From assembly GCA_965369625.1 (NCBI GenBank), contig CBDUQW010000002.1, forward strand, positions 27,708 through 91,707: 64,000 bases of DNA, in the 5' to 3' direction. This stretch comes from an uncultured Thermoplasmata archaeon (GTDB taxonomy: Archaea > Thermoplasmatota > DTKX01 > GCA-020343715). Under the pieces are notes generated by a model. The model was given only the letters and a program-made list of their open reading frames with translations. It was not told the origin of the DNA and made no database searches. The translations under genes and the position numbers were made by a program. Below are positions 1 through 61,866 of the stretch, one piece after another (within the stretch, counting starts at the first letter, position 1; each line of letters begins with the position of its first letter).

Positions 1-167
1 GACCCACTGGCTCGTACGCTTTACCGGGAGCCTCCCGGGCTCCTCCGGCGACACGGCCCACAGGGCCGTGGGAGGGGGTGTACGGCAGCCCGGAACGGGG
101 GTCGATCCACCCCCAACCCAGGGGGTAGCCAGGGGCGATTATTACCGCTGAAAATACGTCCCTTACC

Positions 168-177
168 TATTTATACA
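168..177 (+). promoter_or_regulatory. Putative archaeal TATA box (ctatttatac) in an AT-rich island upstream of the giant surface protein gene. A GGAGG-like RBS lies at about 251-259 before the ATG at 266.
   Basis: The only AT-rich stretch in the first 260 nt. TTTATA-type motif about 90 nt upstream of the ATG. GGAGGGTGTGAGG lies 7-15 nt before the start. Confidence 0.3.
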
Positions 178-265
178 GGTTGGCTAATGCTATCAAAAGA
201 AGTCTGGGGGCTCCCCTCAGGAGCCCTTGAACAACAGTCCGGGAGCACTTGGAGGGTGTGAGGTC

Positions 266-3200
266 ATGAAGAAAGGTAATATCGAAGGAAGGGAACCAAA
301 GAGCGGACGTAGGATCAAAGGGGTCGGTGCACTGACCGTGTCCGTGGTCCTGTTCATGCTCGTATCGCTGATCATGCCCACCGTGAGCGCAGCTCCCGCC
401 CCGGACCTGTTCGTCGACCCCTTGGACCTGTCCGTGGGACCAGAGCCCCTCGTGGAGGGCGTTCCTGCCACGGTGAGCTTCGTGGTCAACAACATGGGTG
501 ACCAGAGCGCCTTCAGCCTGAACATCTCCCTGTACGACCACGGCGAGCTGGTGGCCGACAAGTGGTTCAGGGATTGCATCATCGGTGAGAACATCACCGA
601 CACCCTCCCCTGGACGCCGCAGGCGGCCGGCACCTACGACCTCACCATCAGGGCCTGGTACGGTCCAGGCTCGACCAAGACCGACCAGAACTGGGATGAC
701 AACAACGGTAGCGTCAGCGTGACCGTGAGGTCGCGACCCGACGTGTACCTGACCTCCTCCGACATCACCCACACCGCCCCCGACCCCGACTACGTGGTCG
801 ACGGGGACCTGGTCACCGTCCGCGCCGTGCTGCACAACGCCGGGACCGCCGACGTGACCTCGTGCAACGTGACCCTCTGGGAGGCCGCCGTGGACGGCGG
901 GGGCGAACGTGTCGCCACGCTGGCCGCCATCACCATCCCAGGCTCCGGCCAGGTAACTGTCAATCTGCCCTGGAACACCACCGGCTTCTCGGGCAAGCGG
1001 AACCTGTACGTCCGCGTCACCGACGTCCTGCCCACCGAGACCGCCTTCGCGAACAACGTGGCGACCATAAGCATAAAGGTCCACACCGTGGAGGACAAGG
1101 TCTTCGACGGCGTGGACAGGGAGATCATCTCGTCCTTCAAGATACAGTTCTTCATCACCGTCAAGGGTGGCGGCACCCTGACGATAACCGACGTCGGCAA
1201 CGCCACGGTCTACCAGGACTACGGCGAGCAGTACGAGATCGAGGTGATGGACACTGGCAAGCTGATAATCGATGGTGGCATCCTCAACGCCGCCATGAAC
1301 TACACCGTTTCGCTTACCGACTCCGCCGAGCTCCATCTGCTCAACGGCGCCGAGTCCAACGTGAGGGTGGTGGCCTCTGGCAATGCCAAGGTCTTCATAC
1401 ATGACAGCACCCTGGACGCGCCCACCATCGAGATGACCGGGGGCGCCCTAACTGCCTCCGGTTCGAACATCACCGCTGGCCGTCTGGACCTCTTCTACAC
1501 CACCGTCGTGGTCGACTCCTCGAGCATCAGGACCGGGGAGACCATACGCATCGTTGGCCAGACCGCCTCGTTCAACGACACCGAGATCAAGGTGGCCCGA
1601 GAGTTCGAGGACATCGTTCTGGCCATCGAGGCCTTCCCGCAGCTGGAGGGCCACGACCCGGACACCAGGGAGGTCGAGATACTGCCCCCGGCACTGGTGG
1701 TCACGGACGGTGCCATGGTGGACCTGCGGAACGTCTCCGTCGATTCCACCATCTACATCACCTCCGAGGAAAGCAGCTACTGGACCTCCAACAGGCTCGA
1801 CGCCGAGGGGCGCACCTCCGTCGTGAACGTGCACAGGTACGTGGTCGTCCAGGTGAGGGACTGGTTCGGCGAGGTCGTGCCGAACGCCGAGGTCCAGGTG
1901 ATGGACTACTTCGACGACATCGTGATCATCAGCGGCACCACCAACCTCACCGGCGACGTGACGCTGGCGGTCAAGACCGACTACGTGACGGCCGCCCAGA
2001 AGCCCTACGTGGGGAACCTCAGGGTGAGGGCCTCCGCCTACGGCAGGAACTCCGACGACGTCTGGTTCGCCCACAGCAAGTACCCCGACATGGACTTCGA
2101 GAGCAACACGTTGTTCGTGGACATCGAGATGCCCCCCAACCCGCACCCGGACATGGGCCTGAGGTACAGGAGGTACGTGACCCCCCACCTGATAAAGAAT
2201 GACGAGTCGAGCATGGACAAGAACATCATCGTCGACAACACCGTGCTCACGCTGTTGAACACCACCTTCACCCTGGAGCAGGAGTTCCCGTACCAGTGGT
2301 ACATACTGATCACCGGCGAGCACGGCACCCTCAGGCTGCAGAACGCCACCATCATGAGCCAGTATCCCTTCAAGATCTACGTGGAGGAGAGCGGGACCCT
2401 CGTCATGAGCGAAGGGTCGGCGCTCCTCGACGTCCGGATCATCGCCAAGGACGATTCCAGCCTCGAGATAGTCGACGGCATCATAATGGGAGGCATCTTC
2501 ACCGAGTGCCAGTCCATCGATATCGCCGGCGCCTCCCGCCTCACGCTCTCCCATACCCACATGGAGGCCACCACTGTCAGCATCACCGGTGGCTATGTCC
2601 ACGAGCAGGCGGACATGTTGATCAAGGCCAACGACGTGATGCTGAGCGGCGTGGAGCTCTCCGCCGACTACGAGATCAGCGACACCGTGGGCGCGGAGGA
2701 CCTTTGGGACATCACCCTCTACTTCGGATGGAGCATCCTCAACGACGAGGAGTACCTCTTGAACATCAGCGCAGGCTTCTTCGACTACTTCGCCGCCGGG
2801 TCCGAGATCACCATCGAGACCTCGAGGCTCAACATCATCGATTCCTTCGTCTACGCGATAGACACCAACATCAAGGTGCGTCGCTCAAGCACGCCCAAGC
2901 AGACGTCCATCGAGGGCAGCTGGATCGGCGGCATCAACCTGACGGTCATCTCCGACGACATGGTGGCCATCGACTCCCACTTCAACAGGGTGCTGGACAA
3001 CTTCTCCGGCACCGACAAGATCCGCCTCGAGAGCGTGGAGGTCCCAGGGATCGTCTGCGAGGGCGAGGCCCTGGTGGAGCGGTACTGGTCCCTGACCGTC
3101 TACGCCTACGACGGCGCCGGGTCCGTGAGGCCCTGGGCCCTCCTGGAGGTGTTCTCCACCGAGACCAACGACAGGGTCTTCCCGCCCACGGGCGAGGAGG

Positions 3201-5425
3201 ACCTGGAATCCAGCCGTACCAATTCAGCAGGCATGATAACCGTCTCGCTCCTGGCCAACGTGACCGACAGCACCGGGGACTACTTCGTGGGCTCCTACTA
3301 CTTCTGGCTGGTCTACGATGGTCCCAACTTCGAGAACGACCCCGCCTACACCGAGACGAAGCAGGTGAACCTCAAGGGGGACAGCGTCTTCGAGGCCCGT
3401 TGGCCCATCGTGATAGCGCCCCTCGAGAAGGATATCATCTACTGCCTCTACACCGCAGAGGAGGCAGGCCCCTCCGTGGACATCAAGATGTACAACCACA
3501 CCTTCTGGTCGGAGGAGGAGGCCGAGCAGTTCCTCAACGAGAGCGCCTACATGTCCTACGACAGGATCAAGTTCAACAGGACCATCATCCGGAACACCAC
3601 CATCAGGATGACCTTCTACGCCTCGGCCAGGGTCAACGAGGTCTGGGAACCCCTCACGGAAGGCACGGTGAAGGTCTACGTGCTGACCACTCCCGACCCC
3701 AACCCCAACCGGCCCGCGACGGACTACAACGGCACGGCCCTCATCTACACCGTAGAGCCCCACCAGTTGGTGGACGGCATGGGGAACATCACGATATCCA
3801 TTCCCAACGGTGTCAGCGTGTACCAGCTGTACATCGCCATCGCTGGTGGTGACTACGACCCGATCTTCGAGCCCATCACCGAGCGGTTCATGGACCTGGA
3901 GGTCAAGCACCCCCAGACCATCCAGATCACCAGCGCCAAGATACAGGAGTATCCCATCCACGTGGGCGATGCGATATCCATCATGGGCTCGGTCAGGTAC
4001 ATCTACACCGACGAGCCCGTCCTCTACGCCGAGATCGAGGTCACCGGGACCTACGTCACCCCCGGACGCGGCCTGACCAACATGGACGGGGGTTTCACCA
4101 TCTCCATGCAGGCGCCGCTGCAGCCCCAGGAGAACGTCTCCCTCGAGATCATCGCGGTGGACCCCATCTCCGACGAGCAGTCCGCAATGATCATCAACTA
4201 CGCCGTCGAACCTCCCTACGAGGCCGAGGATGTGGTAGAATTCCCGTGGGGATGGGTCATCGTCGGTATCATCGCCGCCGTGATCGCCTTCTCCATCGTA
4301 CTGGGCGCGGTCATGATGTACCGCAAGCACTACGGCGAGGTGGTGGAGTGCGGCGAGTGCGGCGCCTTCATACCATCCAGCGCCACCTCGTGCCCCAAGT
4401 GCGGCATCGAGTTCGAGACTGACCTGGCCCGCTGCTCGGAGTGCGAGGCCTGGATACCTGCGAAATCATCCTCTTGCCCCGTGTGTGGAACCCCCTTCAC
4501 CATCCAGTCCCTGGAGGAGGCGGTGGCCATGGAGGAGGCGGAGGAGGACGTGGCCCCCATCGACCAGCTGACCACCTCCACCGCCCAGCTGGCCCCCCTC
4601 ACCCTTGAGGGCTCCACCCAGGCCTCCAAGTGGGGTGACAAGGTGGAGAAGCGCCGCCGCCGCATCAAGAAGCGGGTCAAGAAGCGCCTCACCGTCACCG
4701 ATGCCGAGGGCAACCTGGAGGAGGAGGCCCCCGAGGAGGCGAAGGACCTGTTCGTTGGCGACGAGGGTGATGAGGCGACCCGCCTGCCCGGTCTGGGCGT
4801 GGACGAGTCCATGCTCTCCGACGACGAGCTCTCCAGGCTCCTGCCCACAGAGGACATGCTCAAGGAACTCATGCTGACCAGCGACCAGCCTCCCAGCGAG
4901 GCCGCCCTCGAGGGCGAGGCCGACGAACTGGCCGACGAACTGGCCGACGAGGAGGCTCCCGAGGCGGACGAGGCAGAGGCCGATGCCGATGCTGATGCCG
5001 ATGCCGACGCGATGGAGGCGGGAATGGACCTGGAGGAGATCCCCTCAGAAGAGGGCGAGGTCCCCGAGCCTGACGCCGAGGACCTGGAGGAGATCCCGCC
5101 GCCCGAGGGGGCCGACGACGACCTGGACCTTCCCGAGGACGAGGAGACCATGCCCGGCCTTGGCCAGGTCCCCGACGAGGACAAGCCCGAGGAGGAGATG
5201 TACGAGGGACGCGAGCTGCTCAGCGAGCTGGGCCTGGTCGCCGAGGTGCCCAGCACCGCCGACCGGGATGAGGGAGGGGAACCCGCCGAGGAGGAGTCCC
5301 TCAAGGACCTGCTCACCGAGGAGGGGTCCAAGGAGACCCCCAAGCTCTGCCCCAACTGCGGTGGCAACTGGATCCTCTACAAGGACGGCGAGTACACCTG
5401 TCGCATCTGCGGCGAGAAGTGGTGA
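266..5425 (+). CDS. Giant (about 1719 aa) type I membrane surface protein. It has an N-terminal signal peptide, two CARDB-like domains, beta-helix-like repeats and many N-x-S/T sequons. A single TM segment (WGWVIVGIIAAVIAFSIVLGAVMMY, about nt 4246-4320) is followed by a ~370-aa cytoplasmic tail with three Cys4 zinc ribbons and an acidic low-complexity tract.
   Basis: Long ORF 227..5425 with non-shadow composition. The likely start is ATG 266 (MKKGNIEGREPKSGRRIKGVGALTVSVVLFMLVSLIMPTVSAAPAP, a signal peptide). CARDB-like motifs (VSFVVNNMGDQSA..., VRAVLHNAGTAD...). Zinc ribbons CGECG...CPKCG, CSECE...CPVCG and CPNCG...CRICG. Acidic tract EEAPEADEAEADADADADA. Confidence 0.8.
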   Translation: MKKGNIEGREPKSGRRIKGVGALTVSVVLFMLVSLIMPTVSAAPAPDLFVDPLDLSVGPEPLVEGVPATVSFVVNNMGDQSAFSLNISLYDHGELVADKWFRDCIIGENITDTLPWTPQAAGTYDLTIRAWYGPGSTKTDQNWDDNNGSVSVTVRSRPDVYLTSSDITHTAPDPDYVVDGDLVTVRAVLHNAGTADVTSCNVTLWEAAVDGGGERVATLAAITIPGSGQVTVNLPWNTTGFSGKRNLYVRVTDVLPTETAFANNVATISIKVHTVEDKVFDGVDREIISSFKIQFFITVKGGGTLTITDVGNATVYQDYGEQYEIEVMDTGKLIIDGGILNAAMNYTVSLTDSAELHLLNGAESNVRVVASGNAKVFIHDSTLDAPTIEMTGGALTASGSNITAGRLDLFYTTVVVDSSSIRTGETIRIVGQTASFNDTEIKVAREFEDIVLAIEAFPQLEGHDPDTREVEILPPALVVTDGAMVDLRNVSVDSTIYITSEESSYWTSNRLDAEGRTSVVNVHRYVVVQVRDWFGEVVPNAEVQVMDYFDDIVIISGTTNLTGDVTLAVKTDYVTAAQKPYVGNLRVRASAYGRNSDDVWFAHSKYPDMDFESNTLFVDIEMPPNPHPDMGLRYRRYVTPHLIKNDESSMDKNIIVDNTVLTLLNTTFTLEQEFPYQWYILITGEHGTLRLQNATIMSQYPFKIYVEESGTLVMSEGSALLDVRIIAKDDSSLEIVDGIIMGGIFTECQSIDIAGASRLTLSHTHMEATTVSITGGYVHEQADMLIKANDVMLSGVELSADYEISDTVGAEDLWDITLYFGWSILNDEEYLLNISAGFFDYFAAGSEITIETSRLNIIDSFVYAIDTNIKVRRSSTPKQTSIEGSWIGGINLTVISDDMVAIDSHFNRVLDNFSGTDKIRLESVEVPGIVCEGEALVERYWSLTVYAYDGAGSVRPWALLEVFSTETNDRVFPPTGEEDLESSRTNSAGMITVSLLANVTDSTGDYFVGSYYFWLVYDGPNFENDPAYTETKQVNLKGDSVFEARWPIVIAPLEKDIIYCLYTAEEAGPSVDIKMYNHTFWSEEEAEQFLNESAYMSYDRIKFNRTIIRNTTIRMTFYASARVNEVWEPLTEGTVKVYVLTTPDPNPNRPATDYNGTALIYTVEPHQLVDGMGNITISIPNGVSVYQLYIAIAGGDYDPIFEPITERFMDLEVKHPQTIQITSAKIQEYPIHVGDAISIMGSVRYIYTDEPVLYAEIEVTGTYVTPGRGLTNMDGGFTISMQAPLQPQENVSLEIIAVDPISDEQSAMIINYAVEPPYEAEDVVEFPWGWVIVGIIAAVIAFSIVLGAVMMYRKHYGEVVECGECGAFIPSSATSCPKCGIEFETDLARCSECEAWIPAKSSSCPVCGTPFTIQSLEEAVAMEEAEEDVAPIDQLTTSTAQLAPLTLEGSTQASKWGDKVEKRRRRIKKRVKKRLTVTDAEGNLEEEAPEEAKDLFVGDEGDEATRLPGLGVDESMLSDDELSRLLPTEDMLKELMLTSDQPPSEAALEGEADELADELADEEAPEADEAEADADADADADAMEAGMDLEEIPSEEGEVPEPDAEDLEEIPPPEGADDDLDLPEDEETMPGLGQVPDEDKPEEEMYEGRELLSELGLVAEVPSTADRDEGGEPAEEESLKDLLTEEGSKETPKLCPNCGGNWILYKDGEYTCRICGEKW
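4979..5008 (+). repeat. Hexanucleotide microsatellite (GCCGAT/GCTGAT)x5 encoding (Ala-Asp)n inside the cytoplasmic tail. An adjacent 12-nt direct repeat (gccgacgaactg x2, at 4921-4950) encodes ADELADEL.
   Basis: Direct reading of gccgatgccgatgctgatgccgatgccgac. Confidence 0.8.
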
Positions 5426-6007
5426 GGCGGGGGAGCGCCCCCCGTCCGTCACTCGTTACGGCACCAGCCTGCGGCCTGCATCTTCTGCAAGGGCTGCCCG
5501 GTGGGGATGGGCGCGCATTCCTTGACCCTTGGGGATGGTGATATGTCCAGGGTCGTGCAACCGGCCACCTGGGTGGATGAAGGGTCAGACACGATGCGGC
5601 CTCGGGGAACGCCCTGCCCCCGGGACCAATGATGCATGTGGAGGCGGCCGACGGCCTGGGATCAGGCCTGCGAACGTGGGCGGCGGCACGGTCGCGATGG
5701 GCTGCTGTGCGGTCACGTGGACGCCCCCATGTCAATGGGAGATATGGAGGGGAGGGTAGTCGCTGCCCCGCTGCACGGGACGTGCCTCTACGTTACCACG
5801 GTCAAGGACGATGGGGAGGGTCGGCTCGGGGGTGTCGTCGGTGCGATGGCGAAGGGGAGGAGGATGGGCTGTCCGATGATTGCCATCCGGACCCGTGACC
5901 CCCCCGCCTACTAGCTGCATGTCGATGGCGATGGGGACTGCGTTGCCCTGCCCCGAGCAGGGCTGTCGAGATGACGAATGCGGGCCCGATGGTGGTCCCC
6001 GATGGCT

Positions 6008-6910
6008 CTACATCTCGATGTCGGTCTTGATCAAGGCGTAGCCCAGGTCGAAGAACTGCACGTTCTTGATGTCCATGGTGATGAAATCGCCGGAGATGGA
6101 CAGGACGAAGTCGGTGCCCGGCACCAGGCCGGCGTCGATCATGGAGTTGTTGAAGTACCGGGACCACGCGATGGTGTACTCGGTGATCATGGTCAGGTTG
6201 AGCCACTCAGGGGGGTTGAACCGGTGGGATGCGGCGGTGTAGGTCACCAGCTGGGTCTGGAACAGGATGGTGCTGGTGCCCTGTATGGAGGTCTCGATGC
6301 CCGATATTGTGATCTGGACGAAGGTGACCTTGACGACGGGCCCGAACTTCTCCACGGTGAACTGGGGTCCTATGCGCACGATCTCGCCGGCGCCCTGGTT
6401 GAGGATGAGGGCGCCGTTCTCGTAGGCGATCTCCTGGTTGACGTAGTACTGGTTGTTGGAGGTGTACTTCATCCCGCCGGTGGCGGTGATGTTGACCTCC
6501 CCCGACTGGTTCTTGACGTTGCAATAGTACTCCAGCTCGTCGTTGCGGAAGTGGTTGATGGAGAATGTGCCGGACGAGTCGGTGCCGAACATGGCGTAGC
6601 CCTCGGTGCCCAGGGACACAGGGTTGGCCACGCTGAAGGCGGTGTCGCCCTGCAGGATCTGGTTGTCGATGGTGGCCTTGATGTTGCCGAAGTCGGCGGA
6701 GACCTTGTGTATCTGGTTGGCCTCCCTCTTCTCCATCCAGACGGGCATCCAGACCGAGGTGACCATGGTCACCAGCAGGATCACGATGAGGATGGACAGC
6801 ATGATGGCGACCACGCCGGCGGCGGCCTCGTCCTCTTCCCGGAGGTGGCATATCCTCCGTCTGAGGCGTCCTCCGCCGTGTCCAGCAGCCTGTCCCATCG
6901 ACCTGGTCAT
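6008..6910 (-). CDS. Archaeal type IV pilin-like protein (class III signal peptide / Pilin_N-like N-terminus), 300 aa. It is a paralog of the N-terminal 300 aa of the next gene.
   Basis: N-terminus ...EDEAAAGVVAIMLSILIVILLVTMVTSVW has a charged region followed by a hydrophobic helix, typical of archaeal prepilins. Realistic composition, versus Arg/His-rich antisense ORFs on the other strand. It aligns with 6938..8536 (KVSADFGNIKATIDNQILQGDTAF vs KVVNSQFDGMASSIDKQILNGDTKF). Confidence 0.65.
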   Translation of the reverse strand: MTRSMGQAAGHGGGRLRRRICHLREEDEAAAGVVAIMLSILIVILLVTMVTSVWMPVWMEKREANQIHKVSADFGNIKATIDNQILQGDTAFSVANPVSLGTEGYAMFGTDSSGTFSINHFRNDELEYYCNVKNQSGEVNITATGGMKYTSNNQYYVNQEIAYENGALILNQGAGEIVRIGPQFTVEKFGPVVKVTFVQITISGIETSIQGTSTILFQTQLVTYTAASHRFNPPEWLNLTMITEYTIAWSRYFNNSMIDAGLVPGTDFVLSISGDFITMDIKNVQFFDLGYALIKTDIEM

Positions 6911-6937: not shown

Positions 6938-8536
6938 CTATGGATGCAACATTTGATAATATCGGGCGATGTCCGCGTCGGACAGCGCCTTGTCGAATAT
7001 GATGAGCTCGTCCACCTCGCCCTCGAAGTGTCTCCTGTAGATGCCGGAGTGGTACTGGGCGCCCACCGTCAGTCCCTGGGCGACGATGTTGATGTCCCCG
7101 GCGAGCGCGGTGGTGTTCTCGAGGGTGCCGTTGACGTAGATCTTGAGGGCGCCCTCGGCCGTGCTGAAGACGCCTGTGACATGGTACCATATGTTGGGCC
7201 CGGGCACCGTTGAGGACCACACCCAGTCCCGTCTCACGTCCGTGCGGACCGAGAACTCGAAGCCATCGTTGGTGTGACTCGTGCCTACGGTGTTCCCGTT
7301 GTGCTGGAGGGACCACTGGTTCTCGCCCTTGGCCGCGATGGTCGCCCAAGTTGTCCCGTTCCACGGGTTCACGTCCCACCGGACCCAGCACATGACGGTG
7401 ACGCCGTCCTGGACGTTGTACTCGGGTATCTCGGGGATGCTCATGCGCGACCCGGTGCCGTTGAAGGTGTAGCCGCCGCTGTGCACGCCGGCGGTGAAGC
7501 AGCCGCTCCCCACCACGGTGCCGTGGTTGTGGTAGAAGCTGGAATCTGCCGCCAGGGGTCCCGTCCCGTCGTTGAAGTGCCAGAGGCCCACCACGTCCTG
7601 GAGGCCGGGACCGAGGGTGGAACCGCCTGCATTGTCCTGGATCTGGACGTTGACCAGTGCGTAGCCCATCTGGAGGGAGTTGACGTTCCTGATGGCAAGG
7701 TGGATGTCGTTGCCGCTCACGGTCATGATGTAGTCGACGCCTGGGGTGAAGCCCTCCTGGATGAGGGTGTTCTCGTAGTACCTCTGCCAGGCCACGGGGA
7801 ACTCCGTCACCATGCTGATGTTCATCCACTCCGGGGCCGCGAAGCGGAATTCGGCGGTGGTGTAGGTGACCAGCTGGGACTGGACGATGAGTGTGCCCAT
7901 CCCGGTGACCTCCGCCTCCACACCGGACACGGTGATCAGCACGTACGACATGTGGACCACGGGGCCGTGCTTCTCGATGATGAACTGGGGACGGGCCCGC
8001 ACCACCTGGCCCCCGCCCTGTTTGAGGACGATGGCGCCGTTCTGGTAGGCCAGGGTCTGGTCGACGTAGAGGGCGTTGGAGGAGGTGTACTTCATGCCCC
8101 CGGTGCAGGTGATGTTGACCTCGCCCGACTCGTTGCGGAGGTTCGTGTAGAACTCCAGGTCGCCGTCGCGGAAGGAGTTGATGGAGAAGGTGCCCACGGA
8201 GTCGGCGGCGAAGACGGAGGAGCCCTGGACCCCCAGGGTGATGGGGCTGCCGATCAGGAACTTGGTGTCGCCGTTGAGGATCTGCTTGTCGATGGAGGAC
8301 GCCATCCCGTCGAACTGGGAGTTGACCACCTTCATGTGGTCGCTCTCGGCGGTCTCCATCCACTCGGGGATCCACGTGGTGGTCACCATGGTGATGAGGA
8401 GGATCATTATCATGAGGCCCAGCATGATGGTGACGACCCCGGCGGACGCGTCCTCGTCATGCCTGAGCCTCCCCATCCTCCGCTTGGTGGACCAGGTCCG
8501 GTCCCCTGTCGGGCTGTCCCCCATCCCTTCTTCCAT
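6938..8536 (-). CDS. Type IV pilin-like protein (532 aa) with a C-terminal LamG/concanavalin-A-like lectin domain. Candidate pilus-associated adhesin.
   Basis: N-terminus DEDASAGVVTIMLGLMIMILLITMVTTTW (Pilin_N-like). C-terminal about 220 aa contain LamG_3 hallmarks (LWHFNDGTG...HGTVVGS...FNGTGSRMSIP...YHVTGVF...LKIYVNGT...GEVDELIIFDKALSDADI). Confidence 0.7.
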   Translation of the reverse strand: MEEGMGDSPTGDRTWSTKRRMGRLRHDEDASAGVVTIMLGLMIMILLITMVTTTWIPEWMETAESDHMKVVNSQFDGMASSIDKQILNGDTKFLIGSPITLGVQGSSVFAADSVGTFSINSFRDGDLEFYTNLRNESGEVNITCTGGMKYTSSNALYVDQTLAYQNGAIVLKQGGGQVVRARPQFIIEKHGPVVHMSYVLITVSGVEAEVTGMGTLIVQSQLVTYTTAEFRFAAPEWMNISMVTEFPVAWQRYYENTLIQEGFTPGVDYIMTVSGNDIHLAIRNVNSLQMGYALVNVQIQDNAGGSTLGPGLQDVVGLWHFNDGTGPLAADSSFYHNHGTVVGSGCFTAGVHSGGYTFNGTGSRMSIPEIPEYNVQDGVTVMCWVRWDVNPWNGTTWATIAAKGENQWSLQHNGNTVGTSHTNDGFEFSVRTDVRRDWVWSSTVPGPNIWYHVTGVFSTAEGALKIYVNGTLENTTALAGDINIVAQGLTVGAQYHSGIYRRHFEGEVDELIIFDKALSDADIARYYQMLHP

Positions 8537-8563: not shown

Positions 8564-11500
8564 CTAGGTGATCTCCCTCTCCAATGCTGCCAGCGGGAAC
8601 GCCGCCGTCGGTGTGATGGACAGGCCAGAGACCTGCCCCCTCGATTGTATGTCCCCTGTCATGTTGATGCCGAGTGTGAAGTTGCCAGCGCTTCCCGCAT
8701 TGGGAAGGATTATCACCAGCACGTTGTAGGCGATACGCTCCTTGACCTCGAACAGGGGCGACCTGATGAACTCCGCCGAGCCGAAGGAATCGAACCACTC
8801 GTCATCGATGTAGACGTCCTGGTTCGGTCCGGCCGCCAGGTCCCAGGCGCTGTTGTTCGTCCTGTCCCAGTAGAGGCCGATGCGGATCCTCGTCCAGTCG
8901 GCGGGGGGGTTGCCCGAGCTGTTGTAGGCCGCGAAGATCAGGCTGTTCACGTCGGCGTTCTCTCCCTCTGCCCAGAAGGTGAGCTTCATCCAGACGTAGG
9001 GCGTGGACTCCGAGGGGGCTGGCGGGCTCAGGTCCTCCATGTTGACCTTGACGGTGCCGCGGGTGCGGATGGGCACCGTGCCCGAGCTGGCGACCATGGG
9101 GGGGTTCCTGGGCAGATCGAGGCACAGGTTCGGATAGGCCGAAGCCAGGTTGGGCAAGGCTGTGGTGGTACCGATGCCACCCGCGTTGATGCTGCAACCC
9201 AGTGTCCATCCCGCTGTGCCCAGGTTCAGCGAGAACACGACCACGATGTTGAAGTCGGTGCCTGGCGTGACCCACCTCAGGGGAGCGGGTGTGAAGGTTA
9301 TCTGGTTAGCCACGAAGGAGCCCGCGTCCTCGGCATCCAGCTCGATGTCGTCGGGTCCCAGCTTTCTGTCGGTGTCGTTGTTCTGGTCCCAGTAGATACG
9401 CACGGTGACCAGGTTGCCCGCCACCGTGCCCAGCTTGTTGACCCTTATGGAGTTGATGAGCACATCCTGTCCCTCGGCGTTCAAGGTGATCTTGAACACG
9501 GGGACGTTCTGTGACGAGTCGACCAGGGGGTCGGGTATGAGGCCCTCTCCGTGGACGTAGAGCTGTCCGTTGACGGTCCTCCAGTAGGACCTGGACGGGA
9601 TGTCGCTTCCTCCGTAGCCCACAGGGGTGATCGGCAGGGTCGTGATCTGCCCGATCACCTCCGTCTGGGTCGCCAGCTCTATGCTGGTACGTATGGTCTT
9701 GCCCTCTGTCCCGTGGGCCAGGTAGGCGTACGAGTCGACCCGGACGTAACCGTAGAAGTTGGTGTCCATGGGCACCGTCCACATGGGCACGCCGGGGATG
9801 CCGTTGTCGAACAGGGCATGACCTGTGGCGTCGAAGGTGATGGTCTGGTCGTACGCCAGGGTCCCCGAGGATGAGGAGGATATCAGGATGCGGATGCCCG
9901 TGACCTCGTCCCAGGCGATGGTGCCTGCCAGGGTCACGTTGATGGAATGGAACTCGATGGGCTCGCCGTAGCACTTGTAGAGCCACCTGCGCTGGTAGGC
10001 CGTTCCGCCAGCCCTCGTGGGAAGCGTGGTGGTCCCCTCCATGTCGATGGTAACGTGGCCCGAGGAGGCCAGCGTCTTGATGGTGGGGGATGAGGGCAGC
10101 GGCACGCCGCCGGGGGTCTGGGGGTTGATGCCGTCGCCCGAGACCTCGGTGATGGCGAAGGTGTCCGCCGCAGTGTCCATCTGAACACCGACCGTGTCCC
10201 CGTTGTTGCCACGGATGTTGAAGTAGATGTACACATGGCGGTACGGCCACGCCTCGTCTATCCTCCAGCCTCCGGGCGGTGCGTTGACCTCGAGGCGTCG
10301 TGTGATGGCGTTGAAGGCCAGGGGGCCAGAGTCCAGGAAAGTACCGCCCGAGTCCTTGATGTAGCAGTCGACGTCGGTGACGTCGATGTTGCCGAGGAGG
10401 GTCAGGTTGAGCTGGTGGATGAAGACGGTCTCGCCCGTCGCCTGGTAGAGCAGCTCGATCATCTTGACGTCGTCGGTATGGGTCAGGATGCGGGTGGGAT
10501 GCCGGTTGTAGCCCCAGACCTTGAACACGCCCTTGATGGTCAGCACCGAGCTGTCGATGGGGAAGCTGCCGATGGGAAGGATCCTGATGGGGGTGGACAC
10601 ACCGACGGCGGTGATGCTGGTCTGCGACTCGATGCGGACGCCGATGGAGAAACCCTCGGTCCCGCCCGAGATGGAGACCAGGATCCAGACGTACGTGGGC
10701 TCGTCCTCGATGCAGGTGAAGAGGGGAGCCCCGATGAAGTCACGGTAGCCCCCGATGAAGTTGCCGCCCGAACCGGGCAGCTGGTAGTCGAGGACCGTGT
10801 TAAGGACCCCGTCGCGGTCCTTGTCCCAGTAGGCCCTCAGGACCACCTTGTTGTCGGCGATGGTCCCCAGTTTGCGGACGCGTATGCCGTTGACGTTGAT
10901 GGACTCGCCGTTGGACAGGAACTCCAGCTTGAGGAAGAGCTTGTTGGCATCGCCCGACTTGAGTATGGTGGGTGGGGGGACCTCGTCGGTGCCCGTCAAG
11001 CGGAGGGAGCTGAACGAGGTCGACACCGTCACCCTCACGGTGGCGGTGGCGGAGCGTCCAGTGTCGTCGGTGGCGGTGACGGTGAAGGAGTAGTCGCCGG
11101 GCAGCACGGTGGTGGCGATCTTGAGCAGGCCGGTTATGTAGACGCCGTCGCCCCTGCTGTCGACCATGGCGGTGCTGCCGGCACCGAAGGCGGTGACGGT
11201 GAAGGTGCCGTCGCCGTTGTCGGTGGAGGTGATGGTCGCGGTCACGCTGCCCGTGGTGGGCAGGTCGCCGTCGATGTCCTTGCAGACGGCGTAGAGGCGC
11301 CAGGTGGTGTAGTCGTTGTTGGGAAGCACGTCCACACCAGGCAGGGTGGAGTCGGCCCATGCGTAGGCTATGATGGGATCGTGGTCGCCGCCGGAGCTGA
11401 CGCCCCGCTGGACAACGGTGTAGAACAGAAGGCTGTTCGATGTCACGTCGACGATCTTGACGTCCAGCTTGGCCTGGGTGGAGATAGTGCCCAGGAAGTC

Positions 11501-11836
11501 CATGGTCCAGATGTCACCCGGTTCCATGACCTTCTTGCCGGCCGGCAGGCCATCCGATATCTCGAACCTTGTCGGTGTGTCATCTATGCTCACAAGGATG
11601 TAGGTCTCGCCTTCCTTGAGGGGCTCTCCTCCGGTGTGCTGCAGGTGCAGCGTGCCATCCACGGCCGAGGTCCGCTCCAGCATCGGAACGATGTCCGCCT
11701 GGATGGTGGCCTCGGGGCCAGGGATGCTGTACACAAAGGATAGGACCACCGAGAACAGGGACACGGTGATCACAAGGATGAGGAGATTCCCAACGACCTC
11801 GGAGACTGCGTCGTCTCCCGATCTTTTCCACAACAT
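8564..11836 (-). CDS. Large (1090 aa) secreted adhesin-like protein with an archaeal class III (pilin-like) signal peptide. Ig-like/Big-domain-rich, with Thr/Ser/Gly/Val-rich composition.
   Basis: N-terminus MLWKRSGDDAVSEVVGNLLILVITVSLFSVVLSFVY closely matches the archaeal Pilin_N consensus (D/E-R/D-A-V-S-E-V-I/V-G + hydrophobic helix). Long beta-rich repetitive body. A TATA-like GTATAAATAC sits at 11888-11897 upstream. Confidence 0.7.
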   Translation of the reverse strand: MLWKRSGDDAVSEVVGNLLILVITVSLFSVVLSFVYSIPGPEATIQADIVPMLERTSAVDGTLHLQHTGGEPLKEGETYILVSIDDTPTRFEISDGLPAGKKVMEPGDIWTMDFLGTISTQAKLDVKIVDVTSNSLLFYTVVQRGVSSGGDHDPIIAYAWADSTLPGVDVLPNNDYTTWRLYAVCKDIDGDLPTTGSVTATITSTDNGDGTFTVTAFGAGSTAMVDSRGDGVYITGLLKIATTVLPGDYSFTVTATDDTGRSATATVRVTVSTSFSSLRLTGTDEVPPPTILKSGDANKLFLKLEFLSNGESINVNGIRVRKLGTIADNKVVLRAYWDKDRDGVLNTVLDYQLPGSGGNFIGGYRDFIGAPLFTCIEDEPTYVWILVSISGGTEGFSIGVRIESQTSITAVGVSTPIRILPIGSFPIDSSVLTIKGVFKVWGYNRHPTRILTHTDDVKMIELLYQATGETVFIHQLNLTLLGNIDVTDVDCYIKDSGGTFLDSGPLAFNAITRRLEVNAPPGGWRIDEAWPYRHVYIYFNIRGNNGDTVGVQMDTAADTFAITEVSGDGINPQTPGGVPLPSSPTIKTLASSGHVTIDMEGTTTLPTRAGGTAYQRRWLYKCYGEPIEFHSINVTLAGTIAWDEVTGIRILISSSSSGTLAYDQTITFDATGHALFDNGIPGVPMWTVPMDTNFYGYVRVDSYAYLAHGTEGKTIRTSIELATQTEVIGQITTLPITPVGYGGSDIPSRSYWRTVNGQLYVHGEGLIPDPLVDSSQNVPVFKITLNAEGQDVLINSIRVNKLGTVAGNLVTVRIYWDQNNDTDRKLGPDDIELDAEDAGSFVANQITFTPAPLRWVTPGTDFNIVVVFSLNLGTAGWTLGCSINAGGIGTTTALPNLASAYPNLCLDLPRNPPMVASSGTVPIRTRGTVKVNMEDLSPPAPSESTPYVWMKLTFWAEGENADVNSLIFAAYNSSGNPPADWTRIRIGLYWDRTNNSAWDLAAGPNQDVYIDDEWFDSFGSAEFIRSPLFEVKERIAYNVLVIILPNAGSAGNFTLGINMTGDIQSRGQVSGLSITPTAAFPLAALEREIT

Positions 11837-12070: not shown

Positions 12071-12451
12071 TCAGTACGGTCCCCTGAGAACCTCTCTGTT
12101 GATGAACACGCCCGTCGGGGTGACGGCGAGGATGTTCTTGCCCACGCCGGCGACGTCGCCGTTGACGTCCCGGGCGACGGACTTGAGCTCGTTCGCGATA
12201 CGCCTCATCGCGGTGTCGTCGGTGGAGAGGGCCGAGATGTCCACGAGGATCATGTTACCATCGTAGACCTCTTCGATGACGGGGCCAAGGTCCTCGAAGG
12301 TGGTGACCTCCGCGACCCGCAGCTCCATGCCTCCGGCGCCGGATTCCAGCTCCAGGCCCTCGATGTCGATGTCCCCCAGGTCGATGAACTTCTCGCTTTC
12401 GGGAACAGGCCGTGGATCCGTCTTGAGCCGCTTGAGTAGACCCTTCTTCAT
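12071..12451 (-). CDS. sepF: Cell-division protein SepF (DUF552 family, FtsZ-interacting).
   Basis: 126 aa. C-terminal core ...NMILVDISALSTDD..RRIANEL...GKNILAVTPTGVFINRE matches the SepF fold signature (iLlNL...rriDfl.G...g.ifLltP..V). Confidence 0.7.
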   Translation of the reverse strand: MKKGLLKRLKTDPRPVPESEKFIDLGDIDIEGLELESGAGGMELRVAEVTTFEDLGPVIEEVYDGNMILVDISALSTDDTAMRRIANELKSVARDVNGDVAGVGKNILAVTPTGVFINREVLRGPY

Positions 12452-12604
12452 ACCCTACCCTCCGGGTGGTAAGCCTATAACCCATTCGGTGGTTATAAGG
12501 TTTAGGGGGAGCGCCTGGCGGGTCCGTGGCACGCCATCTGGTCCCCCTCCGCCGGTCAAGAGATATATACCCGTGGCCATATTGGGGGACTGGAGGATGA
12601 CCGG

Positions 12605-14245: not shown

Positions 14246-15235
14246 GTGGCCAAGAAATCAGCCCGCGCTGAGGCGAGGAAGGTAAAGGACCGCTGGAAGT
14301 CCAAGGTCTGGTACAACCTGTACGCCCCCGAGATATTCGGGGCGAGCCAGATCGGCGAGACCCTGGCGGACACCCCCGAGAAGCTGAACGGTCGCGTCAC
14401 CCAGATCACCCTTCAGGACATAACCGGTGACTTCTCGCAGATGCACGTCAAGCTGAACTTCCAGATCAACCGCGTGGTGGGACTGGACGCCCACACCGCC
14501 TTCGTCGGCCACGACCTGACCTCCGATTACATCCGCCGCCTGACGCGCAGGAAGCACTCCAAGATGGACGGCATCTACGATGTCACCACCCTCGACGGCT
14601 ACCGCGTGCGCATCAAGCCCATGGCCATCACCGAGCGGCGCATCAAGTCCTCCCAGCAGGAAGCCATCCGTGCCCAGATGATGCAGGTGGTCAACGACAG
14701 CGCCAGTCGCGCAACCCTCCCCGAGGTCATCAGGGCGATGATCTCCGGAGAGATGTCCAAGTCCATCTTCCGCAAGTGTAAGCCCATCTACCCCATCAAG
14801 CGGGTGGAGATCCGTCGCAGCCAGGTGATCGGTCGCGAGTTCGTCCCCGACGGCCCCGTCCGCGAGGGTGGCGACGGCTACGTGCTTGGAGGTCCCGAAC
14901 CAGAACCCGAGCCGGAAGGCGAGGAGGCTCCCGCCGAGGGCGAGGTACCCGTCGAGGCTCCCGCCGAGGAGACCCCTGCAGAGGAGGCTCCCGCGGAGGT
15001 TCCCGCCCCCGCCGAGTCGGAGGAGGAGTCCGAGGTGGACCCCGAGACGGTGGCCGCCATCATAGCCTCCTTCGGGGACATCCCGGGCATCGGCCCGTCC
15101 AAGGCCCAGGCCCTCTTCGACAGCGGTTACACCTCCGTCGAGGAGATCAAGGCCCTCTCCGCGGAGGACCTGGCCAAGGTCGAGGGCATCTCCGAGGCCC
15201 TGGCCAAGAGCGTCCACGAGGCCCTCAACGAGTAG
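14246..15235 (+). CDS. rps3ae: 30S ribosomal protein S3Ae (eS1) fused to a C-terminal acidic Pro/Glu/Ala-rich linker and a helix-hairpin-helix (HhH) domain.
   Basis: N-terminus MAKKSARAEARKVKDRWKSKVWYNLYAPEIFG... is the canonical S3Ae start. It is about 210 aa, followed by EPEPEPEGEEAPAEGEVPVEAPAEETPAEEAPAEVPAPAESEEESE and then IASFGDIPGIGPSKAQALFDSGYTSVEEIKALSAEDLAKVEGISEALAK (two GIG-type HhH motifs). Confidence 0.8.
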   Translation: MAKKSARAEARKVKDRWKSKVWYNLYAPEIFGASQIGETLADTPEKLNGRVTQITLQDITGDFSQMHVKLNFQINRVVGLDAHTAFVGHDLTSDYIRRLTRRKHSKMDGIYDVTTLDGYRVRIKPMAITERRIKSSQQEAIRAQMMQVVNDSASRATLPEVIRAMISGEMSKSIFRKCKPIYPIKRVEIRRSQVIGREFVPDGPVREGGDGYVLGGPEPEPEPEGEEAPAEGEVPVEAPAEETPAEEAPAEVPAPAESEEESEVDPETVAAIIASFGDIPGIGPSKAQALFDSGYTSVEEIKALSAEDLAKVEGISEALAKSVHEALNE

Positions 15236-16762: not shown

Positions 16763-19700
16763 TCATCGATGCTTCAGCATGTGCCCTATCAGGAAACCCA
16801 ACACGAGCAGTGCAAGGGCGGTCAAGAGCAGTATGATGATGACCTTGGCGTCCTCCGTGGGTCCCCAGACGGGCTGTGCCTCAGGTTTCCCCCTCACCAA
16901 TAGGTCCGTCTCCGAACGGGCGGAGGCGGTCCCGTCCGTAACGATGGCCGAGATCCGGTGCGCGCCCGCAGCAAGGTCGTTGACCGTGAACTCCACATCA
17001 CGGTCCGTCTCGATGGTGAGCAGGATGCCCGAGATGTTCGAGATGAGGGTGAGAGTCACCATCTCGCCGTAAATGAAGTCGGGGTCCTCGACGGAGATCC
17101 TGAAGGTCACCGGCGCCCCCTCGTCGAAGGCGCTACCGTCGCGAGGTGCCAGGAAAATCGGGGGCAGGGGTGGCTCCCCAATCTTCGTTACATGTACGGT
17201 GATGTCCTCCGATGCCGAACCCCCACGGCCGTCCGTTCCAGAAAGGGTGACATGGTGGGTGCCCAGGTCCCCCGCATCCGCTGAGAGCCTCAACGAACCG
17301 TTCCCAAGGAGGCTTGCGCCGTCCCAGTCCGACTCGATGGATAGATGGACCCGGTCCCCGTCCTTGTCAATGGTGAGGACATCGAGGACCAGCTCCTCTC
17401 CCACCTGCATCTCGATCTCTGCCGGGAGGTGGTAATCGCCGACGGCCAGTAGGTCCGGGTTGTGGTTCCTATCGATGACCCGTATGGGTAGGAGTCCCAC
17501 CGTGGTCTCGTACCCGTCCGATACCCTGAACTCGATCTGGTGGGGTTCCTCGTAACTTGGGTAGTACAGACGTATCATCAGGTCCGTGATGTACAATACC
17601 GCAGGGTCCCCGGAGCTCAGTTTGAGGTCGTGCTTGGCGTCGTCCACGTCGTAGATATAGGGACCCAGGTCCACTTCCTTCAACATCCTCACCGATATGT
17701 TGAACTGTGGGATCTCCATGATGCTCGGCGGTGAATTCAGGTGCGTGAACTTGAAGGGTTCCGACCATGGACCGCCACGTTTGGGTGGACGCGAATAGAG
17801 CGTCGCCACCCGCCAGTAGAGCTCACCCTTGCGGGTCCCCGAGACATTGGCGTAGGGATCTGGAACATCCGAGGTCAACGTGACGAGGTCGAAGTCAGGG
17901 TCGAGGGCCAGCTGGAACCTGTAGCCCCATACATCCCCGTTGGTGGTCGACCCGTGGACCGGCGACCATGTGAAAAGGGGAACGTCCTTGCTCTCGTGCC
18001 CGTTCCACGGGGTCTGCAGGGCGGTCATGCTCATGGGGACGTACCGGTGGGCGCGTCCCTTGGATGTCATCCTTCCCGTCCCCTCCCCGCCCGTTGGTCC
18101 CAGGGCGGCGGACCTCCAGCAGAACCCACCATCGCCTCCGGTGGCGCCCAGGTGATTGTTGGCGTGGATGACCGGCTCAATGACCACCAGGCGCATCGAG
18201 GCATCTCCTCCGTCTCCAACCCCCTGCTCGATGACACCGGTCCCGCCACCGTGGCTGATCCAGAGGCCATCCTCGATGATACATCCACCACCACCGCCGG
18301 AGTAGGAGCCGCCGCCCCCACCTCCCCTCCATTCGTTCCTAGCGGCCATCATGTGAGAGCGTCCAGCCCTTCCTCCGGGGCCACCTCCACCAGCGTGGAC
18401 GTTGACATCCACGAGGAAGAACGTTCCCTGGGTCGATGTAACCTCCAGTCGGGCATCTCCTCCCGAGGCCACGTCACCCTCCACCGTGCCACCAGACCCC
18501 CCGTTCACGGTGAGCGGGTCTGATGCGGACGGGATCCATCCTGCCCCTCCACCTCCGGAGTGCCCACCCCCTCCAGCTCCACTGGGACCTGTGGATGTCC
18601 CTCCATCACCTGCCCTGCCCCCTTGGCCCGCGGTCACGTTCAGGATGCCATCGGAAAGATGGACGGAATGCGACACGATGGTCGCGGTGGCGTCGCCCCC
18701 TGAACCCACGTGACCTTCGACCGTTCCTCCGTTTGCTCCCCCGTTCCGAGATTCATGACTGCCACCTCCGCCTCCCGAGTAACCTCCACCACCGGCACCG
18801 CCGAGACCCGCCGTGTCACCACCGTCGCCAGCATCACCACCGTCACCCGCCTGGATGGCCACCTCCGAGGCCTGCATGGAAACCTCGACCGCAAGGATGT
18901 ACAGGGTCGAATCGCCGCCGACGCCAACCCATCCCGAGACCTGTCCACCTGGACCCGCGGGATGCTCGGGGTCCGAGGCCCCCGTGCCTCCCGAGTAACC
19001 GCCACCTCCGGCGCCCAGGCCGGCGTTGGACTTCACGGAGCCACCGTCGCCCGCATCACCTCCGTCACCGCCCACGACATGGACCACAGAGCCCTGGACA
19101 TCGACCTTGTTCGTGGTCATACCGATGAAGGCGTCCCCTCCGGAACCAACCCTGTCCGAGACAGACCCACCCTGGGTATAACCCCCGCCGAGGACTTGGG
19201 CGGTGCCCTCGGAGGTCACGCCGTCGGGGGCGTCCCCTCCCACTCCCGCCTGGACGAGGACGGTGGAGTTCAATATGGCGAGGGAGGCGAAGTCCAGTGT
19301 GGTCTTCAGGACGAAGCGGGCATCGCCCCCGGCGTACCTACGACCGTCCAGGTCGTCGAGCGTCACCGGGATATCCGGGCCCATTCCATCGCCCGCCGAC
19401 AGGACCACGGACGCGTTCTCGATCAATATCTCCCGGCTGGCCCTCACGTTCATCTCCACGCTCACTCCCTGACCGTCCCAACGGTTCGAGCCGTCAGGTC
19501 CCTCGATGATGATCGAGGATCCATCGGTGACGCGCATGTGCCTGCACGTCCCGTTGATGCCGATGACCTCCCCTGCCGTCCAAGGAGAGATGACCAGGTC
19601 GCCCCCTGTGAGATCGACGGTGGCCAGTCCTTCCATGGTCATTTGGGATACCGACAGCGTCGTCCCCTCGGGTATCACCAGGTGACCAAAGGTCGTTATC

Positions 19701-23046: not shown

Positions 23047-23159
23047 GGGAACTACTAAGGACGCATGCTGATAATAATCCCATCGATGCGTGACACCCGC
23101 GTCGTCCGAGGCCAAGGTCCAGGACCGACGAGGGAAAGGATGGGGTCATAATCCCAGGC

Positions 23160-35672: not shown

Positions 35673-35862
35673 GGAGACCCGACCACCTGGTTCAACCTCA
35701 CTCCTTGCATCCATTCCTGCCTGGCCCATATATACAGTCTTGTACGGTTCTTTATCGTTCCCATACGGGGTATGGGGTCCTGGCACTCGCTCACGTGGTG
35801 CCATGTGCGACCGTACGCCTTAAGGGTTGCGACGTGGTTTTCCTCGGGGCGAACCCAGTTAT

Positions 35863-61644: not shown

Positions 61645-61866
61645 CGGGTTGCGAGAGGACCATCGGCGGAAATAAAGGCTTGGGTCCGGCCAGGCCCCAT
61701 GGGTGTCGTTGGTCCCTGCGACAGGGAGTGGCCAGGGCTTCCGATTATCCATTCTGATTATCTCTAACTGATAATAATGGGGTCGGAACGTTTATCTATT
61801 TCATTCGTTGTATCCGGGGGTAGTAGGCGCAGCCAGCGCACGCAAATTAGTAGACCGGGGTGTTGG

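Follow-up and report, generated by a model that had tools for sequence, protein, structure and literature searches.

ZipA and EzrA are bitopic membrane anchors of bacterial FtsZ. The only known archaeal FtsZ anchors are SepF and, very recently, CdpC, neither of which crosses the membrane, and the question of how the division ring communicates with the cell surface is largely open. The present work concerns a giant surface protein whose gene lies at the left end of a 64,000-nucleotide stretch of DNA from an uncultured Thermoplasmata archaeon (contig CBDUQW010000002.1, positions 27,708 to 91,707; this whole stretch is referred to here as the window), in the neighbourhood of cell division genes, and whose long cytoplasmic tail begins and ends with zinc ribbons.

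CdpC of Haloferax volcanii (HVO_0399, UniProt D4H025) is a protein of 346 amino acids that anchors FtsZ1 to the membrane. Its membrane-binding N-terminus consists of an amphipathic helix and a C3H zinc ribbon, and is followed by a disordered linker of 243 amino acids and a C-terminal C4 ribbon that binds the globular domain of FtsZ1 at ~0.1 uM; both zinc sites are essential (bioRxiv 10.64898/2026.07.16.738847). The cytoplasmic Cys4 ribbon of ZitP in Caulobacter recruits PopZ and links this scaffold to Cpa pilus biogenesis (PMC5182063, PMC5182065), and GltJ of Myxococcus contains a zinc ribbon (ZnR) that binds MglB, a flexible linker that binds MglA-GTP, and a GYF domain (PMC11135422). For archaeal type IV pili, Makarova et al. 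recorded zinc-ribbon membrane proteins and double-zinc-ribbon proteins in the pilus loci, with no function given (PMC4858521), while the description of the CdiP pilus machinery of Cuniculiplasma, which has two ATPases and a split platform protein, does not mention a giant zinc-ribbon protein (PMC12448462). Our literature search found no description of the zinc-ribbon-tailed giant protein examined here, no paper pairing CARDB domains with zinc ribbons in archaea, and none on DUF7289, the pilin-like family encoded near it.

The giant gene encodes a type I membrane protein with a cytoplasmic tail, and this topology is well supported. The tail may be a tether that recruits a partner, most likely the Z ring (FtsZ/SepF), a reading which we prefer but hold tentatively, as somewhat short of probable. 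The gene and the parts of its product up to and including the membrane helix are as follows (window coordinates).

266..5425, + strand: gene of the giant type I membrane protein, 1,719 amino acids plus stop
266..391, + strand: signal peptide, residues 1-42, with a basic n-region, a hydrophobic core and a cleavage-type site between VSA and AP (from hydropathy and direct reading)
392..4243, + strand: extracellular all-beta ectodomain, with two CARDB/Ig-like domains, two beta-helix segments, further beta-sandwiches and 24 N-glycosylation sequons
4244..4318, + strand: single transmembrane helix, residues 1327-1351, then YRKH; Kyte-Doolittle maximum 2.93

Hydropathy identifies only two hydrophobic segments in the protein, the N-terminal signal and the transmembrane helix, and the latter segment is a helix in the AlphaFold2 (AF2) model, with a predicted local distance difference test score (pLDDT) above 90. 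Searching 5.8 billion proteins added 17 full-length orthologues, which are 39-62% identical to the window protein and all come from metagenomes (the one with a source name is from a Thermoplasmata metagenome-assembled genome, or MAG); with the window protein they form a set of 18. The tail is placed inside the cell because the protein has a Sec-type signal, one transmembrane helix and positive residues after that helix; because the sequons lie in the ectodomain, where 24 are found and 9.8 are expected from composition, while the tail has none (21-25 and 0-2, respectively, across the 18 orthologues); and because the Cys4 sites are confined to the tail, the 1,326 residues before the transmembrane helix containing 5 Cys and no CxxC. 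The C-terminus, a tail of 368 amino acids, is not that of the archaeal S-layer type, in which a PGF-CTERM or short anchor lacks a cytoplasmic domain.

The ectodomain is 1,283 amino acids long and has a mean pLDDT of 87.4 in the AF2 model. Pfam CARDB (PF07705) matches residues 59-143 at 43.6 bits, against a gathering score of 22.7, and the sole match of the whole protein in a PDB sequence search is a CARDB-like chain of a cell surface protein (2l0d, E=1.2e-5). A Foldseek comparison of the ectodomain with the PDB returned generic Ig tandems at TM-scores of 0.08-0.12 and no specific homologue.

The tail is divided into the following elements.

4337..4504, + strand: membrane-proximal double zinc ribbon, four CxxC pairs (nucleotides 4349-4486), VECGECGAFIP..CPKCGIEFETDLARCSECEAWIPA..CPVCGT
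4628..4696, + strand: conserved basic helix KWGDKVEKRRRRIKKRVKKRLTV, 57% K+R, helical in the AF2 model with pLDDT ~84
4778..4882, + strand: conserved short helical motifs TRLPGL..DES.LSD.ELSRLLPTEDMLKELMLTS, with invariant residues, short helices in the AF2 model
4883..5200, + strand: variable acidic disordered linker, 45% D+E, with two tandem repeats and a conserved LEEIPxPE (about 5084-5104)
5204..5242, + strand: conserved helical motif (E)GRELLSELGLVA, with invariant L/E/G residues, helical in the AF2 model
5333..5422, + strand: terminal C4 zinc ribbon PKLCPNCGGNWILYKDGEYTCRICGEKW, the last element of the protein, pLDDT ~77 in the AF2 model

The net charge of the tail is about -74, and its 12 Cys residues, a number found in all 18 orthologues, are all arranged in six CxxC pairs, a count that 20,000 shufflings of its sequence never reached. 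The double ribbon begins ~6 residues past the transmembrane helix, and its four CxxC pairs (Cys 1362/65, 1376/79, 1390/93 and 1404/07), which fall within ~46 residues and are invariant among the orthologues, form putative zinc sites; the AF2 model gives two beta-hairpin pairs at pLDDT ~76-80. Against Pfam DZR (PF12773, gathering score 27.3) the double ribbon scores 28.8 bits when the tail is searched alone and 24.5 bits in the full-length protein. The terminal ribbon, CPNCG-x13-CRICG (nucleotides 5348-5410), makes up the last 25 residues and is also invariant in the orthologues. A profile search of the PDB with the tail gave as its only match the zinc finger HVO_2753 (6ydh), which at E=0.28 is not significant.

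The disordered linker between these ribbons is about 100-230 residues long, and most of the stretch from tail residue 242 to 372 has a pLDDT below 50. Tandem Repeats Finder reports within it a 12-bp unit repeated 2.8 times at 4918-4950, which encodes ADEL, and a 6-bp unit repeated 4.8 times at 4979-5007, which encodes AD. The repeats occur in the window sequence and in none of the 17 other orthologues, in which the region is acidic and variable in length; because they are absent there, they are taken to be local expansions of a spacer rather than a functional element, and they matter only as acidic spacer. The initial annotation, which had been made from the letters of the window alone, thus proved accurate in its description of the protein: it had given an ectodomain of ~1300 and a tail of ~370 amino acids, a single transmembrane helix with a cytoplasmic tail, two adjacent CxxC ribbons after the helix, which the DZR score and the shuffles confirm, a terminal CPNCG...CRICG ribbon, and (ADEL)n and (AD)n mini- and microsatellites, which are real and specific to the window lineage.

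Two other interpretations of tail segments were tried and set aside. The basic helix has a hydrophobic moment of ~0.5 but very low hydrophobicity, so that it is better described as an electrostatic patch than as a membrane-inserting amphipathic helix. The sequence DDELSRLL, considered as an MIT-interacting motif, is by eye out of register with the MIM1 consensus.

Column identity among the 18 orthologues is 0.92 in the double ribbon, 0.97 in the basic helix KRRRRIKKRVKKRLTV and 0.98 in the terminal ribbon; it is 0.66 in the ectodomain and 0.46 in the acidic linker. Short invariant motifs (TRLPGL, LSRLLPTEDMLKELML, LEEIPxPE and GRELLSELGL) appear in the AF2 model as isolated helices in a disordered chain. 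The ribbons and the tail motifs are shown to be under strong purifying selection.

The genomic position of the gene bears on what the tail may bind. The window opens in the promoter of the giant gene, with the ftsZ genes just beyond its left edge, and downstream of the giant gene, convergent with it, lie pilin-like genes followed by sepF, which ends the block ftsZ-ftsZ, giant, pilin-like genes, sepF. The assignments below rest on Pfam matches and, for the pilin-like genes, also on synteny.

6008..6910, - strand: pilin-like DUF7289 protein with an N-terminal transmembrane or class III-like signal
6938..8536, - strand: pilin-like DUF7289 protein with a Laminin_G_3 lectin-like domain (69.7 bits)
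8564..11836, - strand: protein of 1,090 amino acids with the archaeal type IV pilin N-terminal domain Pilin_N (50.3 bits)
12071..12454, - strand: SepF, the FtsZ membrane anchor (52.4 bits)

The three pilin-like genes are separated by gaps of 27 nucleotides, and their products, with bodies of 1,090, 532 and 300 amino acids, are far bigger than filament-forming pilins.

In the orthologous loci, two divergent ftsZ genes stand upstream of the giant gene, followed by secE, spt5 and the L11-L1-L10-L12 genes. The ftsZ pair adjoins the giant gene in 10 of the 11 loci whose upstream side is visible, and in 10 of 11 loci sepF comes after the pilin genes. Only a complete genome (CP070808.1) departs from this: there the giant gene, together with a DUF7289 gene, has subtilase genes on either side. 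A metagenome scan with the C-terminal module found four loci, all with the same synteny. The neighbouring FtsZ paralogues score about equally against Methanocaldococcus jannaschii FtsZ1 (379 and 391 bits), which gives no FtsZ1/FtsZ2 assignment, and the adjacent paralogues in five loci (L002, L003, L004, L008 and L010; for example L003 7190-8122 and 8455-9651) both end in a conserved L(D/E)(L/V)DF(I/V)(R/K) peptide.

A second subfamily (P0034, P0035 and P0040) came to light when 1.84 billion representative proteins were searched with a profile built on the C-terminal module; its members are ~1,500 amino acids long and have ectodomains only 19-25% (~23%) identical to that of the window protein. 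Their tails contain the double ribbon, an EDML(R/K)ELLM motif and a terminal ribbon, VCPNCGGNWVVQRDGKNSCRVCGTRW, with the pattern CPNCGGNW..DG..CR.CG..W, while the linker is different and less acidic. Their loci contain the giant, DUF7289, Pilin_N and sepF genes, with the N-terminus of an FtsZ at the left contig edge. SepF in this subfamily is, by eye, ~60% identical, and the genes beyond sepF are PUA/Lhr, as against an aminoacyl-tRNA synthetase-like gene and S3Ae in the subfamily of the window. The profile also matched a few short, mostly multi-ribbon proteins outside the giant family.

The initial annotation had suggested that the tail serves either transmembrane signalling or the recruitment of intracellular partners. 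Recruitment is indirectly but strongly supported by the conservation of the ribbons, the basic helix and short helical motifs (92-98%, against 66% in the ectodomain) and by the retention of the terminal ribbon in the second subfamily; the suggestion of signalling gained no specific support, and a Pfam scan for kinase, helix-turn-helix (HTH) and other output domains found none in the tail.

The FtsZ/SepF ring is put first among the candidate partners because the presence of the terminal ribbon tracks the location of the gene at the division locus in lineages that are very divergent, and because the layout of the tail repeats that of a proven FtsZ anchor. If the tail is a tether of this kind, a rigid platform made of the double ribbon and the basic helix would sit on the anionic inner face of the membrane. 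The acidic linker, repelled from the membrane, would serve as a flexible leash, and the terminal ribbon and short motifs would capture the cytoplasmic partner, so that the giant protein would physically link the division ring with a giant pilin-associated structure outside the wall-less cell. A more specific version of the proposal is possible but doubtful, namely that the terminal ribbon, perhaps with the helical motifs, binds FtsZ filaments or SepF, and that the protein is a bitopic Z-ring anchor and trans-membrane divisome link which arose from a remodelled pilus-accessory tail and either converges on CdpC or is distantly related to it.

The window protein must also be considered as a member of a wider family, whose members are associated with other genes. 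Double-ribbon patterns run on the GTDB species-representative genomes gave 296 confirmed matching stretches, and all of the matches listed are from Thermoplasmata or Methanomassiliicoccales MAGs. Three of the 296 belong to the subfamily of the window, while the rest match in the transmembrane helix and double ribbon only. The module is C-terminal in host ORFs (open reading frames) of 650-2,800 amino acids, and the spacing from the transmembrane helix to the first Cys is 5-10 residues in all subfamilies. A word-indexed search with a profile of the helix and double ribbon was uninformative, returning only short DZR fragments. These comparisons of sequence show that giant surface proteins of one family, found throughout Thermoplasmata, share the unit of transmembrane helix and double ribbon as their C-terminal anchor; their genes adjoin those of type IV pilin-like proteins and, in most lineages, a motor cluster with two ATPases and a split PilC. 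The window protein is assigned to this family by its signal-bearing ectodomain, its single transmembrane helix and a V(E/Q)CGECGA..CPKCG.EFE double ribbon within 10 residues of that helix. DZR in Pfam is defined by structure and has no assigned function; the fixed position after the membrane helix is a trait of the archaeal family and not of DZR generally.

In 50 of the fetched loci, all of canonical members, the cluster consists of a small KaiC-like ATPase, a coiled-coil Zn-ribbon protein and the giant, followed on the opposite strand by PilB, PilC, PilC, PilB and DUF7289 and then by a large KaiC-like ATPase. The layout of the motor genes is that of CdiP in Cuniculiplasma (PMC12448462). The canonical cluster is exemplified by locus L034 (OW818644.1, 3812-20233) and is found in ~50 others (L013-L085) across Methanomassiliicoccales and other Thermoplasmata; the large KaiC-like ATPase in it is of the KaiC-like/DUF7504 type, and the coiled-coil protein has 390 amino acids and a basic C-terminus, KRSVSIRKIIKRK. 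The relative in L034 reaches a DZR score of 37 bits, and precomputed DZR matches exist for four others (P0004, P0008, P0013 and P0015). Canonical tails are 190-260 amino acids long, with six CxxC pairs, a Trp-rich helix and an internal third ribbon, and they close with a basic [KR][KR][IV][IV][KR][KR]P motif and an acidic end. The basic motif at the C-terminus of the coiled-coil protein also ends the canonical giant tails, and this resemblance suggests that the two may share a binding partner.

The likeness of the window protein to the canonical giants (for example L034 5963-10699, P0020 and P0021) extends to homologous CARDB and beta-helix building blocks, a VECGECGA..CPKCG.EFE..C..C..C..C unit with equal spacing after the transmembrane helix, six CxxC pairs in the tail, a basic [KR][KR][IV][IV][KR][KR] motif and a nearby DUF7289 pilin-like gene. 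The canonical giants differ in lying beside PilB, PilC and KaiC-like genes and in having the Trp-rich helix, the internal third ribbon, and the basic motif with its acidic end, while the window protein has the ftsZ-sepF position, an early basic helix, a much longer acidic linker and a ribbon in last place. A terminal ribbon is found in the subfamily of the window and in the second subfamily only; none of the canonical pilus-linked tails ends in one.

The fixed spacing of 5-10 residues in all subfamilies, whatever follows the double ribbon, together with the occurrence of the module on very different ectodomains of 650-2,800 amino acids, is what would be expected if the tail were a passive anchor, in which a zinc knob and the basic helix act as a mechanical stopper that holds the ectodomain in the membrane of a wall-less cell and the acidic tail is a spacer or brush with no partner. 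The lack of conservation in the sequence and repeats of the linker is also in keeping with this. Such an anchor, however, gives no reason for the terminal ribbon to be invariant at a distance of 300 residues, for helical motifs to be conserved within the linker, or for ribbon and motifs to be retained in a subfamily with an ectodomain of ~23% identity, and we consider it improbable.

The wider family provides the evidence for the main rival to the Z-ring reading, which is that the tail docks PilB-type ATPases, the PilC platform and KaiC-like ATPases encoded elsewhere, with an extracellular part made up of giant ectodomain and pilin-like proteins, in a manner akin to GspL, PilM/N or ZitP. A homologous giant lies directly beside the PilB-PilC-PilC-PilB, DUF7289 and KaiC-like genes in 50 other Thermoplasmata loci, and every locus of the subfamily has a DUF7289 pilin-like gene near the giant, as do most canonical loci with a long enough flank. 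ZitP is a precedent for a zinc ribbon linked to pilus biogenesis (PMC5182063), zinc-ribbon membrane proteins and double-zinc-ribbon proteins are known from archaeal type IV pilus loci (PMC4858521), and the pilins of Thermoplasmatales can lie ~500 kb from the motor operon (PMC12448462). Searches for PilB, PilC and KaiC-like genes, on the other hand, found none in the 64-kb window and none within 8-10 kb in the loci of both subfamilies with a terminal ribbon, and the Trp-rich helix, internal ribbon, and basic motif with acidic end of the canonical tails are replaced here, which suggests that the partner has changed. We regard coupling to a pilus motor as rather unlikely on balance.

Several observations nevertheless weigh against assigning the tail to the Z ring. 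At its deepest, the genomic association of the wider family is with pilin and pilus genes and not with division genes, and the ftsZ-sepF position could derive from a single ancestral insertion that persisted. In CP070808.1 the giant gene is elsewhere in the genome and yet its tail is fully conserved. Mimicry of the SepF-binding C-terminal peptide of FtsZ by the tail motifs was considered and rejected, since the FtsZ ends GLDFIR and LDVDFVR show no convincing likeness to ELLSELGLVA or TEDMLKELML. The C-terminal profile found no CdpC-like protein of ~350 amino acids at E<=1e-3 among the 1.84 billion proteins, a domain of 30 amino acids being too short for remote detection, and the N-terminal parts are not alike: CdpC combines its C3H ribbon with an amphipathic helix, and the window tail combines a double C4 ribbon with a transmembrane helix.

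The composition of the tail raises a further alternative. A TFIIB-like terminal ribbon and an Arg/Lys-rich helix might attach to RNA polymerase or to nucleic acid (DNA or RNA), or might tie up a regulator as zinc-binding anti-sigma (ZAS) factors do, and so report surface events to gene expression. The terminal ribbon does have sub-threshold Pfam matches to TFIIB-type ribbon profiles (Zn_Ribbon_TF at E=0.008, RRN7 at E=0.043), 57% of the residues in the basic helix are K or R, and a second giant surface protein in the window, encoded at 31899-35804, has a tail with two winged-helix DNA-binding domains, so that membrane-tethered regulators appear to be present in this organism. But all of the ribbon matches are far under the gathering scores, the net charge of the tail, about -74, speaks against nucleic-acid binding by the whole of it, the giant gene has no conserved regulator gene beside it, and the tail lacks an HTH domain and the ZAS motif HxxxCxxC, its single His being that of YRKH; archaea, moreover, are not known to have sigma factors. 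Binding to nucleic acids or transcription factors is thus quite improbable. The second giant (31899-35804, - strand; 1,301 amino acids) itself has a signal, an NPCBM_assoc/CARDB ectodomain, a transmembrane helix at residues 1107-1135 and ~165 cytoplasmic residues with the winged-helix domains (HVO_0163 N-terminal HTH and HTH_24/MarR), and to judge from these domains it looks like a membrane-tethered transcription regulator.

The window also encodes the kinds of protein that would be needed for a small-GTPase switch like that of GltJ, in which ribbon and linker motif would bind a Roadblock/MglB-like protein and a Ras-like GTPase and so toggle a surface machine. They are a Ras-family GTPase (37584-38144, - strand; 124 bits) and a Roadblock/LC7 protein (61777-62229, + strand; 35 bits), which are MglA/MglB-like. 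In GltJ, the ZnR and the linker bind the corresponding two partners (PMC11135422). The two genes, however, are 32 and 56 kb from the giant gene and, being 23 kb apart, are not adjacent to each other; neither is seen near the giant in other loci; and the Pfam scan detected no GYF domain and no MJ0042-type ribbon in the window protein (zinc_ribbon_4/5, no match at E<=0.1), whose ribbons follow the transmembrane helix. We consider this alternative the most far-fetched of those discussed here.

The start of the giant gene and its control region were also delineated. In the open reading frame listing, the mechanical ORF, 227..5425 on the + strand, opens at the first TTG (227). The ATG at 266 is most likely the true start on the evidence of comparative alignment; it is preferred because a Shine-Dalgarno-like GAGGGTGTGAGGTC and the ATG are kept in seven loci. 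GC content at third codon positions is 0.90, and the pattern across codon positions is that of real genes in this window of 65% GC. The region upstream is as follows.

165..265, + strand: promoter and leader, with a TATA box TATTTATA at 168-175, a stretch upstream resembling a transcription factor B recognition element, and a ~90-nucleotide 5' leader ending in GAGGGTGTGAGGTC

Promoter and leader are recognized by invariant columns in an alignment of six orthologous upstream regions. Window positions 140-265, which are common to the giant gene and the divergent ftsZ gene, are strongly conserved among orthologous loci, with CTGAGAAA..CACCTATTTATAC, GGCTAATG and GGGAGCAC..GAGGGTGTGAGGTC-ATG. The consensus RNA fold of the 5' leader is weak (-6.6 kcal/mol, two covarying pairs); an Rfam scan of window positions 1-6000 gave no match, and no intrinsic terminator was found downstream of the giant gene.

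Large envelope proteins are unusually abundant in the window. At 16763-29478 on the - strand there are four tandem ORFs of ~1,050 amino acids (16763-19891, 19888-23115, 23160-26336 and 26326-29478), all with N-terminal signals, three with C-terminal transmembrane anchors and short tails, and three with Big_9/Ig-like domains; the four probably make up an array of paralogous surface proteins. Two further surface proteins with C-terminal transmembrane anchors are encoded on the - strand, one at 46527-49772 with a right-handed beta-helix, Big_13 and Glucodextran_B, and one at 62315-63880 with Big_13, Glucodextran_B, fn3, Big_6 and PKD. The ribosomal protein S3Ae gene beyond sepF (14246-15235, + strand) is fused to a C-terminal helix-hairpin-helix domain (HHH_5, 51.7 bits), a fusion that is also present in loci L002-L004.

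If the tail does bind the ring, the giant would be the first archaeal membrane-spanning protein found to tie division to an extracellular structure, and it would show that the division locus had taken on a surface protein associated with pili. Should the partner be a pilus motor instead, the transmembrane helix with double ribbon is still a widespread anchor module in surface proteins of Thermoplasmata that had not been described before, and an accessory component hitherto missing from the two-ATPase CdiP-type pilus loci. In either case the tail offers short, defined targets, in the 56-residue double ribbon, the 23-residue basic helix and the 30-residue terminal ribbon.

It remains to compare the protein with the systems described at the outset. 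ZitP and GltJ resemble it in being single-pass proteins with a small cytoplasmic Cys4 ribbon and a flexible linker, which in them carries a binding motif, and the portion of them outside the cytoplasm works on a type IV pilus or on a machine for surface motility. They differ in being bacterial, in having an N-terminal ribbon of the MJ0042 type, and in lacking a double ribbon, a terminal ribbon and a giant ectodomain. The likeness to ZipA lies in the single transmembrane helix, the charged region, the long and flexible linker and the small domain at the C-terminus, with which ZipA captures FtsZ; ZipA differs in having its N-terminus in the membrane, almost no extracellular part and an alpha/beta FtsZ-binding domain, and there is no sequence relationship between the two.

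[quoted passage not shown] The sizes also correspond, with 346 amino acids in CdpC and 368 in the window tail, and linkers of 243 and ~230-280 amino acids, respectively, and in both proteins the variable linker has a conserved island inside it. The association of CdpC with FtsZ is experimental, whereas for the window protein it is a matter of gene position. CdpC is a soluble or peripheral protein attached through its amphipathic helix, while the window protein has a real transmembrane helix and 1,283 extracellular residues; the membrane-proximal ribbon is a single C3H in the former and a double C4 in the latter. The relatives of CdpC in Thermoplasmatota are reported to have no apparent linker (10.64898/2026.07.16.738847), and the window tail has one. 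On this comparison, the giant protein is best classed, by analogy, as a putative CdpC/ZipA-like tether, anchored in the membrane and terminated by a zinc ribbon, which is fused to a giant pilin-associated ectodomain.

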